Below are positions 3,001 through 6,000 of a DNA stretch of 27,246 bases, one piece after another. Source of the stretch: Escherichia coli (GTDB lineage: Bacteria; Pseudomonadota; Gammaproteobacteria; Enterobacterales; Enterobacteriaceae). The stretch lies in NCBI RefSeq assembly GCF_003334255.1, contig NZ_QOWU01000062.1; one strand, given 5' to 3'. Positions within the stretch are counted from its first letter, which is position 1, and each line of letters starts with the position of its first letter. A program made the position numbers.

Positions 3001-6000
3001 GCCGTCGGGCTCCCGAGACGAGGTGATTCAGCCACTGTTTCTGCTTCTCCATAAATGACGCCAGCGACAGTTTACCCTGTGCAATATCATCTAGGGCCTG
3101 CTCCCAAAGTGCCGTGGTTCCCGGACTGGTCAGCACCTCAGGTAATCCTGCTATCAACTCTGCCCCCAGTTGTGTTGCCCGGATATGCTTACCCTGTTTC
3201 TCAATATATTTGCGGGTGAACAGTGTCTCCAGTATTTCAGCACGGGTTGCTTCCGTGCCCAGTCCGGCATTCTCGCGTAACACTTTTTTCAGAGCCGGAT
3301 CGCTCACCATTCCCGCCGCATTTTTCATCGCAGCAATGAGCGTGCCCTCCGTATAGTGACGCGGAGGCGTGGTTTTCATCTCTTTCAGTTCTGCTTCAAC
3401 AAGACGACATTCATCCCCCTTAGCCAGAACAGGCAGAGGCATTGTCTGCTCTGTATCGCCCCCCTCGTCTTCATCATGCGGCGCATCTGCAATAAAAAGC
3501 GCACGCCATCCTTTCACCACTTCCATCCGTCCTCGCGTGCCAAACAACTGCCCGGCAACAACAAAAGTGGCTTCAGTGACGTCCGCTTCCTGCACGGGTA
3601 AAAACTGAGCCAGATAATGCTGACGGATTAACCGGTAAACCCTGAGTTCGTTATCACTCAGGGCACCAATATTAAACGCCTGACGGGTGGGGATAATCGC
3701 ATGATGCGCAGTGATCTTCTTATCATTCCAGACTCTGGAAACAATATCAGGACTGAGTTTTGCCAGTTCAGGGGCAATGTCCGGATCGGTGTTTGCCACA
3801 GCCGCCAGAACCTCCGGCACTTCTTTATGCATTGATACCGGCAGATAACCACAGTCAGTACGGGGATACGTCGTTGCCTTGTGTTTTTCGTACAACGACT
3901 GGGCTATATCAAGAACGGCCTGCGCACCTAAACCAAATTTTTTCGAGCAGACCTCCTGCAGTGTACCGAGTGAAAAACAAAGCGGAGGCGGCGTCTTCTC
4001 TCTTTTGCTGCTGACCTCTCTGACTACAGCAACACCGGCCTGACGACACTGCGACTGGACGCTTGTGGCAGCCTGCACATTCACGCACCGCTTTTCCACA
4101 TCACAGTACTGCTCTGCCGCAACCCAGGCTGCGCGAAAACGCACGTTGTCTTTCTCAAGCCAGAGGTTCAGTTGCCAGTAAGGTACCGGGATAAAATTTT
4201 TAATTTCCGCATCCCGTCTGACCACCATCGCAAGCGTGGGAGTCTGCACCCTGCCAATCGAGAGAACACCAGACACGCCGCACTCCCTGGCTTTCATCGT
4301 GTACAAACGCGTCAGGTTGATCCCCGTCAGCCAGTCTGCCCGGCTGCGCCCCTTACCGGCCTCATATAAACGCGCAGTTTCCTCTCCTGGAAGTATTCTG
4401 CCCAGCGCTTCCCTGATACTGCTCTCATCCAGTGCGGATAACCAGAGGCGTCGAACTACTCCTGTATAACCGCAATAATCAAGCAGTTCTCTGGCAATAA
4501 TTTCGCCTTCCCGATCAGCATCGGTGGCAATCACTACTTCATCTGCCTTACCGAGAAGACGCCTGATAACATTAAACTGCCTGGCGACCTTATCCTTCAC
4601 CACCATCTGCCACTGTTCAGGAATAACCGGCAGAACCTCAATGCTCCAGGGACTGCCATACTGCTCACCGTACGCCTCCGGTGGAGCCTGCTCCAGCAAA
4701 TGACCAAAAGCCCATGTCACAACAAAGTCGTTACCTTCAATCAGGCCTTCACCGCGTCTGGCAGCCCCAAGCACTCTGGCAATGTCACTGGCCTGTGAAG
4801 GTTTCTCACACAAAAAAAGACGCATAATTCCCCCTGGCAACTCACTGCTATGATAAGTTACGTGACTTACGGTTCAGAGGGGGAGAGAATGAAGATCTAG
4901 CTTTACCAGAAAGAATATCTGGCTCAGGCATACCGTAACGAGCAATAGCCTTCTCACCTTTACTGGTTTTATTTTCAATATCATCCCGCGTGACACCTAC
5001 AGAACGATAGATTTGTAGAATACCGTAAATCTTGCGGATAAGGTACGCACCAAACGACAACAGTTCATCACGCTGGTTTCGGGAAATTAACCCCAGATGA
5101 GCCGCCTGAAACGTTTTTAATGCAAGCTGATCATATCCGACGAGAAGCCAGACACAACGGTAACCAAGCGGCGAACGACTGAATACCCCTATATTGACTG
5201 GTGAACGCGAAAGCACGTCCTTGATAGTAATCCCGGAAGGTATGTTTCTGAGAATATCGTCAAGCTGGGCTACTTCGGCATTAATTTTTTCAGTCGCATC
5301 AATAATCGCATTCTCCAGTTTCCACATCGTCTCATCAGCATAAGGATTATCAGCAAGAGAATCCCGGTAAAGACCACCAGTCATTTTAATGGCTTCTGGC
5401 ATACTCATAATTCGTGGGACTTTACGCCCCTCATTATTTTTAGCTTTTGAGCCACGTCGACCTTCCCATAACATAATGGCATAGCGGGAATGTAGCTCTA
5501 TATTCAGAGTTGATGTAAAAGCTCCCACACGATGAGAGGCTGGCTCCTTCACTATTTCTTCTGGCATGTTGTATCTCCACTATTGAAAATGACATCAGAC
5601 AGAAATAGTCCTCTCACCGACAAAGATCTGACAATCGAAAATAAAAAAAGAGATGACTGAAATTACGCACAGTAGCACTGGCAAAAGCGCTCATTTCTTA
5701 GTCACTGCTGGCACTGCCAACACCGCTCACTTTTTAATCAATGTTGGCACTGCCAACACCGCTCGTTTTTTAGCCACTGTTGGCACTGCCAACACCGCTC
5801 ACTTTTTAGTCACTGTTGGCACTGCCAACACCGCTCGTTTTTTAACCACTGCTGGCACTGCCAACAGTGTTCGCCAAAACAGGAAACATCCCGGCCAGCA
5901 CTTAACCACGCATAGCCAGACGGGCAGCATTAGCACGCTGTATGCTGGCACGGAATTCTGCGACAATATTTCGCGCTTTTTCTGGCGAAGCCACTTCCCT

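Follow-up and report, generated by a model that had tools for sequence, protein, structure and literature searches.

What reads a tandem array of short palindromes that lies between two core genes of an integrative and conjugative element (ICE), and what might such an array do? The window analysed here, 27,246 nucleotides of Escherichia coli (contig NZ_QOWU01000062.1), matches with 100% identity an ICE of the SPI-7/pKLC102/ICEclc family in E. coli 2015C-3121. Its array (5675..5866, no strand assigned) follows a gene for a Rep-like protein, and the initial annotation placed two options side by side, a centromere-like site for the element's ParB or an iteron-type site for the Rep-like protein. 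Comparison of related ICEs makes it likely that the array is a series of tandem bisS/parS-like sites in double-stranded DNA, each palindrome being read by a clamp dimer of the ICE's own BisD-type ParB. The site co-varies specifically with the helix-turn-helix of ParB, and in some ICEs it is physically linked to parB. The repeats were already known as objects; here covariation assigns them to the ParB-like protein.

The array and its palindrome

Tandem Repeats Finder places the array at 5675-5866 with a period of 36 bp, 5.3 copies, 86% matches and a score of 279, and a repeat search of the window returned five units in register, which bears out the tandem 36-bp array first annotated. A full unit joins a 17-bp odd-centred palindrome to a 19-bp spacer with an A5-6 tract (GTGRYTAAAAARNGAGCGG + TGTTGGCAGTGCCAACA in gene-sense orientation). 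Five units carry the palindrome TGTTGGCA-S-TGCCAACA (8+1+8 bp); three of these are perfect (TGTTGGCA-C-TGCCAACA; 5742-5758, 5778-5794 and 5814-5830, strandless), and the two outer ones (5706-5722 and 5850-5866, likewise strandless) have one mismatch each. The core TGGCAcTGCCA, centred at 5714, 5750, 5786, 5822 and 5858, had been described as an 11-bp palindrome present in every unit. It is indeed present in these five, with a symmetry that extends to 17 bp, and "every unit" slightly overstated the case because a sixth, degenerate partial unit at the end that adjoins the PFL_4669 promoter region (5675..5705, strandless; GCACTGGCAAAAGCG...) has neither core nor palindrome.

Searched with up to three mismatches, the 17-mer has five matches in the window against 0.12 expected from shuffles. 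The rest of the window and 41 kb of this ICE yielded no further copies, and KorB-like operators dispersed through the element were rejected on that basis. The 17-bp palindromes are proposed to be pairs of half-sites for a ParB/BisD-like dimer.

Counterparts of the array, in 1-30 copies, occupy the interval that separates the STY4528-family gene from the PFL_4669 (InrR-like) gene in elements throughout Enterobacterales, in pKLC102 and in ICEHin1056. A survey built on a STY4528 alignment with one genome per species gave 80 loci from many enterobacterial genera. At least one palindrome of the form TGYTG-NNN-N-NNN-CARCA lies 13-250 nt past the STY4528 stop codon in ~73 of 85 loci, many of them single-copy, and the array of the window begins 35 nt past that stop (5902), just 3' of the winged-helix Rep-like gene as originally noted. 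Complete E. coli genomes have the array in this same position, with 1.9 units in NCTC9112, 6.3 in STEC2018-553, 14.3 in 2013C-3033, 18.0 in GPEC673 and 29.9 in SCU-171, as against 5.3 in the window, and Salmonella SGI-4 has 11.4. The 15.2 units of pKLC102 measure 57 bp and each contain GTGGTGCCA-C-TGGCACCAC or a variant, some being TGTTGCCA-C-TGGCAACA; the 36-bp units of ICEHin1056 contain TGTAAAG-GGG-CTTTACA. Two contigs (L010 and L079) end within or just past the array, as often in draft genomes, so that short-read assemblies probably under-report copy number.

The initial annotation had asked for the conservation of the core to be set against that of the whole unit. Related ICEs keep the position and the palindrome frame, whereas the core varies between genera and the A-tract is not universal: it was rejected as an essential part of the unit, being absent from the 57-bp units of pKLC102 and from arrays embedded in parB, and replaced by a T-tract in one locus. 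That locus (L025, 7257-7512) has spacers with a T6 tract, all other arrays having an A-tract, as would be expected if this array were in the opposite orientation to the genes. A coding repeat was also rejected: the 36-bp period leaves several frames open, yet the open reading frames (ORFs) called over arrays by the Prokaryotic Genome Annotation Pipeline (PGAP) differ in strand between genomes. Its "hypothetical proteins" cover arrays at L003 3254-3865, L006 3561-4211 and L088 9236-9670. Given that such ORFs lie on opposite strands in different genomes, they are probably artefacts, the repeat period being a multiple of three, with the exception of the parB-embedded arrays, which run in frame within a disordered linker; annotation would gain, as pipelines now call spurious ORFs over these arrays. 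A sigma-54 or NF-I-like TGGCA motif does not fit either, since the spacing is unsuitable and the core differs between genera, nor does a folded site of the integron attC type, the conserved outer bases of which mismatch and for which no cassettes are present.

Covariation of the palindrome with ParB

The predicted reader is a BisD-like protein of the ParB family with 541 residues (10997..12622, minus strand, PGAP start; NCBIfam TIGR03764, 1.4e-113), the large ParB already recognised by the initial annotation together with ParA. It carries the motifs of a CTP (cytidine triphosphate) pocket, GNTR (93-96) and ENEVR (135-139); these are followed by a helix-turn-helix at about residues 168-197 and by a disordered linker that leads to a helical domain at the C-terminus. 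Its N-terminal 340 residues share 42% identity with ParB from an ICEclc-like element. When its AlphaFold model (predicted local distance difference test score 83.8) was submitted to Foldseek, the top 28 PDB matches were all ParB, Noc or KorB. Judging from the motifs, the NCBIfam match and this model, the element encodes a cognate ParB-family protein with both a CTP pocket and a helix-turn-helix.

A pair of closely related E. coli elements bears directly on what this protein reads. SCU-171 and 2013C-3033 carry ICEs that are near-identical over ~14 kb. In the 9.1 kb between dnaB and the STY4528 stop, each 100 bp shows 0-1 nt differences, apart from a segment of ~230 bp with 48 differences that encodes ParB residues 161-193 (L089 7620-7850 against L090 5990-6220; ~21% divergence in 9 kb otherwise >99.5% identical). 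This patch covers exactly the helix-turn-helix of ParB and, by its sequence, looks like a cassette exchange. The sole other divergent block is the array, which is of TGTTGGCA type in SCU-171 and of TGGTGGCA type in 2013C-3033, and the genes downstream of it are again near-identical. The window has both the helix-turn-helix allele and the palindrome in common with SCU-171. Other proteins do not follow the swap in this way: STY4528 is 98% identical with residues 1-175 unchanged, the PFL_4669 proteins of the window and 2013C-3033 have 98% identity and scattered changes, and the DUF2857 (WP_000069531.1) and STY4534 (WP_001682053.1) proteins are each identical in the window, SCU-171 and 2013C-3033. 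GPEC673 presents the converse case, in that its ParB is 83% identical overall to that of the window, yet residues 150-193 show 100% identity and the palindromes do not differ; for STY4528, the nearest homologues of its E. coli group are ~76% identical. The co-varying codons of the window's parB, ~161-197 (12032..12142, minus strand), encode the helix-turn-helix with its recognition helix (..SMRELSSLLTEQGLPVDASSISRMENALKYL..), and helices 168-177 and 184-197 of the AlphaFold model coincide with the cluster of substitutions.

The recognition helix, written GxPV-x1x2x3x4-ISRM, was compared with the half-site in 39 distinct helix/half-site combinations. N or D at x2 goes with C at base 3 of the palindrome in 12 of 14 combinations, as against none of the other 25 (Fisher 2e-8, phylogeny uncorrected), and the N/D state arose in three helix backgrounds. 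Q at x2 is paired with A at base 3, N at x4 is paired with ACA, and a minimal pair sets HSSN with TGTTGACA against HNSN with TGCTGACA. Across these comparisons site specificity tracks the recognition helix of ParB.

The palindrome is a double-stranded site whose dyad has been kept in evolution. Changes in both arms occur at 6 of the 8 arm positions and 96% of cells are symmetric, in a count of sequences that had been pre-selected as palindromes; symmetric change of this kind is what a dimeric reader requires. The arrays of pKLC102 (L087) and a relative (L092) differ in their inner bases alone (CCA-C-TGG vs CGG-G-CCG), and the two ParB proteins have identical helix-turn-helices, with 13 of 29 substitutions clustered at residues 206-236, a segment just past the helix-turn-helix that may make a second contact with DNA and so read the inner bases.

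The physical link to parB comes from three Pantoea/Enterobacter ICEs (L035, L042 and L046) in which the palindrome is absent after STY4528. Four 36-bp units lie instead in frame within the disordered linker of parB (L042 4523-4650), with the palindrome TGTTGCCA-S-TGGCAACA and encoding STVATGNTSEPxS repeats.

Several observations weigh against ParB as the reader. For this branch of ICEs the binder is a prediction, the experimental binding coming from ICEclc BisD, and the array shows no sequence similarity to bisS of that element (TGTTGGCAsTGCCAACA vs GAGCTATCCCCnGGGGATAGCTC). The Pfam search did not detect a ParB domain in the window's protein, and phmmer against the PDB returned only KorB at E = 1.1; because these sequence links failed, the fold comparison was needed. 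The C-terminal domain matches that of the pKLC102 protein weakly (26%, E = 3e-4), whereas the pKLC102 and ICEclc-like proteins match each other strongly there (9e-33). Single arrays can hold different inner triplets (L073, L011 and pKLC102), which a single protein would explain only with loose reading of the inner bases or with end units that are relics. The lack of a phylogenetic correction in the Fisher test and the pre-selection in the symmetry count belong here too. Finally, the array lies nearly always straight after the Rep-like gene and bears an origin label in the literature, and a role in replication might be part of its function.

If ParB is nonetheless the reader, there is reason to think that binding itself, CTP-dependent sliding and their downstream function would resemble those of ICEclc BisD and canonical ParB. 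Dimers would recognise the palindrome via the helix-turn-helix, close as CTP-bound clamps and slide off along the ICE. With the DUF2857 (BisC-like) protein, the presumed partner of the ParB-like clamp, they would then activate transfer-competence promoters, the first being the adjacent PFL_4669/InrR-like promoter. The ParA-family ATPase (15590..16468, minus strand) is a possible partner should the array also serve positioning or partition, so that the clamps may, with ParA, position the excised element. The number of repeats, 1-30 among relatives, would set the number of clamps loaded. The centromere-like option of the initial annotation thus fares well as to the ParB site, given the helix-turn-helix covariation and the arrays moved to parB. 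A centromere role may be only part of the function or none of it, because this ParB is a BisD-type clamp, in ICEclc a transcription co-activator loaded at bisS sites (PMC12409273).

A broader proposal, which we put forward tentatively and regard as possible although doubtful, is that the array and the part of parB for the helix-turn-helix together make up an identity cassette that ICEs of the SPI-7/pKLC102 type can exchange. Copy number would tune how many clamps load and hence how often cells enter transfer competence, and a separate GTTCGG cluster would be the real origin. The parB patches and the array would be swapped or co-selected, co-resident ICEs would avoid loading each other's clamps, the outcome would be an incompatibility or cross-activation barrier, and the repeats would act as a regulatory loading platform.

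Elements of the SPI-7, PAPI-1/pKLC102, ICEHin1056 and ICEclc types are vehicles by which virulence and resistance determinants spread in Salmonella, E. coli, Pseudomonas and Haemophilus. Should ParB be the reader, the experimentally established ICEclc switch (BisD-bisS-BisC) would also apply in the enterobacterial and pKLC102 branches, where it would have a definite, testable site, and the natural helix-turn-helix/site swaps would be ready specificity mutants for how ParB-family clamps read DNA.

Iterons, hairpins and other explanations

The "oriV" (origin of vegetative replication) of these elements has been cited since the mid-2000s from repeat structure alone. As iterons, the repeats would be bound by the STY4528 Rep-like protein, which would open the DNA for the ICE-encoded DnaB helicase. 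PFGI-1 was given a putative oriV "immediately upstream of PFL_4669", including 46-bp repeats with AGTGTTGTGGGCCACACCACT (Mavrodi et al. 2009, PMC2647930), and iteron-like oriVs are cited for ICEHin1056, pKLC102, SPI-7 and PAPI (Juhas et al. 2007, PMC2258188). The view of the initial annotation that no such site had been defined for this ICE family is therefore outdated, the more so with BisD-bisS described in ICEclc in 2025. Iterons would also suit elements that occur in circular, plasmid-like records and that have genes for DnaB, Ssb and topoisomerases, and they would suit an array found so regularly within 250 nt of the STY4528 stop. The pKLC102 repeats were reportedly described as oriV by Klockgether in 2004; the description of pKLC102 given above was checked on the sequence itself.

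Iterons are nonetheless unlikely. The winged-helix recognition helix of STY4528 (ASRETVSRVLLMLR) is near-invariant (0.46 bit per column vs 1.39 for the ParB helix-turn-helix) despite the variable palindrome, and it is identical in pairs of elements with different arrays, which tells against the Rep-like option of the initial annotation; iterons would be expected to co-evolve with the adjacent Rep protein, and in these comparisons the repeats do not. The array is uncoupled from STY4528 in the three ICEs that carry it within parB. Nor does it have the helical phase of ~11/22 bp, AT-rich flank and tight copy number of iterons, its period being 36 bp and its 1-30 copies among close relatives being unusual for copy-control iterons. 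For the oriV label, an experimental test was not found in the PFGI-1 and ICEHin1056 literature. As the array most likely consists of ParB sites and not of sites for the Rep-like protein, the label "replication origin" is probably wrong.

An invariant Rep protein is better matched by an invariant cluster in its own gene, beside an AT-rich stretch. Inside the STY4528 gene, the window has motifs of the GTTCGG-NNN-CCG(AAC) type (6289-6491), three of them at 21-bp phasing, which adjoin the AT-rich inverted repeat TACGTACGTA. In 82 loci the hexamers are 10-fold enriched in the STY4528 gene, all at 50-70% of its length, and the 15-bp palindrome GTTCGG-NNN-CCGAAC is invariant between genera, as is the STY4528 winged helix. 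The motifs match the "23-bp palindromes" of PFGI-1 and "bisS-3" of ICEclc, and a CTTCGGAtTCCGAAG palindrome inside ICEclc orf96323 is unbound by BisD (PMC12409273). This intragenic cluster is, on its layout, a candidate for the real origin, arranged like ori-lambda within gene O, and with ParB reading the array the search for the true origin would shift to these conserved palindromes in the STY4528 gene.

Perhaps the repeats act as single strands, their hairpins serving mRNA processing or stability, or a priming signal or promoter on single-stranded DNA (the transferred or lagging strand). The arms remain complementary through two-sided changes, certain Xenorhabdus loci have symmetry over 23-31 nt, as RNA the array gives a much better fold than shuffled versions (z = -8.5), and the array sits in a co-directional operon near ssb and topB. 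The initial annotation had argued that the palindrome would make a poor hairpin, which fails because the palindrome had been taken as too short (a stem of 7 bp closed by a 3-nt loop is feasible); its favoured conclusion, a protein site in double-stranded DNA, is supported because G-T is not favoured among the mismatches of the arms on either strand (25 G-T, 37 A-C and 37 other). A hairpin element should tolerate wobble and keep a fixed orientation, whereas here, besides those mismatch counts, a single locus can have both G and C as the central base, and the spacers of one array (L025) are inverted. Specific bases also track the recognition-helix residues of ParB, which a purely structural element would not do. 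No match at gathering score was obtained in Rfam, only sub-threshold chance matches, so that a known RNA family was rejected. An intrinsic terminator was rejected as well, with no T-run beside the stem and a negative terminator scan within the array. Taken together, these points make single-strand hairpins very improbable.

Another protein of the ICE (BisC-like DUF2857, PFL_4669 or STY4534) could instead use the array as an operator or enhancer to control the adjacent PFL_4669 promoter. The array does end ~108 bp upstream of the PFL_4669 start, and ICEclc BisC binds promoter regions including PinR (PMC12409273). The swap described above speaks against all three candidates, since DUF2857 and STY4534 are the same in elements whose arrays differ and PFL_4669 shows only scattered changes, and the array can sit within parB, far from the PFL_4669 promoter; the chance that one of them is the reader seems slight indeed. 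A neutral, functionless variable-number tandem repeat would explain why copy number shifts between near-identical ICEs (5.3 in the window and 6.3 in STEC2018-553, with the same flanking proteins) but is almost certainly wrong, since the palindrome motif and its position are kept, with compensating changes in the two arms, across elements as far apart as those of Haemophilus, Pseudomonas and E. coli.

Neighbouring genes and known systems

All genes of the ICE lie on the minus strand, in the order ParA, DnaB-PI, the 541-residue ParB-family protein, DUF2786, DUF2857, small genes and the STY4528-family gene, then the array, the PFL_4669-family gene, topoisomerase III, STY4534 and ssb. The STY4528-family "pathogenicity island replication protein" (5902..7188, minus strand) has an N-terminal winged helix and corresponds by synteny to ICEclc orf96323. 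The DUF2857 protein (9701..10279, minus strand) occupies the position of ICEclc bisC and is 33% identical to the DUF2857 protein of an ICEclc-like element (L091). What had been taken for a 239-residue cargo gene is a core gene of the PFL_4669 family at the position of ICEclc inrR (4848..5567, minus strand), and its promoter region (5568-5674) comes immediately after the array when followed along the transcribed direction. The 690-bp intergenic region that separates topoisomerase III from STY4534 (2126-2812) contains a 46-bp tandem duplication (2296-2388), to which a 47-bp repeat in L086 is similar, and two perfect palindromes, GGCGCTGAATCTTCAGCGCC (2570-2589) and AAACAACGCCGTTGTTT (2713-2729).

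The closest comparison is ICEclc, which belongs to the same superfamily and has the same order of ParB/BisD, DUF2857/BisC, STY4528/orf96323, PFL_4669/InrR and ssb. Its BisD (550 residues, G92NTR95, E136NELR140) loads at two odd-centred palindromes, bisS (Antar et al. 2025, PMC12409273). BisD hydrolyses CTP and spreads over ~50 kb, and together with BisC it switches on promoters of transfer competence, PinR among them; the same authors, who also discuss ParA, consider daughter-cell partition unlikely (PMC12409273). Like bisS, the sites of the window are odd-centred perfect palindromes, and the window's protein has its GxxR and ENxxR motifs at nearly the same positions as BisD. An ICEclc-like element on a Pseudomonas veronii plasmid has bisS-type palindromes after ssb and 125 bp upstream of the PFL_4669 gene, the latter being the slot that the array fills in the window. 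In one bisS-type site (L091 12642-12664), two symmetrically placed changes (GAGCcATCCCC..GGGGATgGCTC) set it apart from the bisS published for ICEclc, which suggests that bisS evolves by the same two-arm compensation. ICEclc differs in having 11-bp arms where the window has 8 bp, and two single sites 2 kb apart where the window has one five-copy tandem array and relatives have up to 30 copies. In the window, moreover, CTPase activity and activation are predicted, and the C-terminal domain is weakly similar.

The putative oriV repeats of pKLC102 (about 16 x 57 bp), PFGI-1 and ICEHin1056 are homologous to the array in position and motif. The PFGI-1 repeat (4 x 46 bp) has the same TGTTG...CA.CA frame, and the Pseudomonas repeats are longer (46-57 bp) and GC-rich, unlike the 36-bp period with A-tract of the window.

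The F plasmid offers a second parallel in sopC, which consists of 12 43-bp repeats, each with an inverted repeat bound by SopB, and in which repeat number is not critical; it directly follows sopB and serves partition with SopA. The array resembles sopC in its direct tandem repeats with one short ParB-family palindrome each (binding here being predicted). It departs from sopC in lying ~5 kb from parB in most ICEs, and its protein has an extra, activator-type domain. KorB of RK2 is likewise a ParB-family CTP clamp; it binds OB, a 13-bp palindrome, and acts on promoters at a distance with a partner protein. The palindromes of the array share the odd length of OB, and KorB is among the top structural matches of the window's ParB model. 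KorB represses from single, dispersed sites, whereas the sites of the window are clustered and the homologue in ICEclc is an activator. Chromosomal parS (TGTTNCACGTGNAACA) has 16 bp around an even centre, as against 17 bp, a central base and different inner bases in the array. The outer TGTT...AACA bases are common to both, and the pKLC102 unit TGTTTCCA-G-TGGAAACA comes close to parS.

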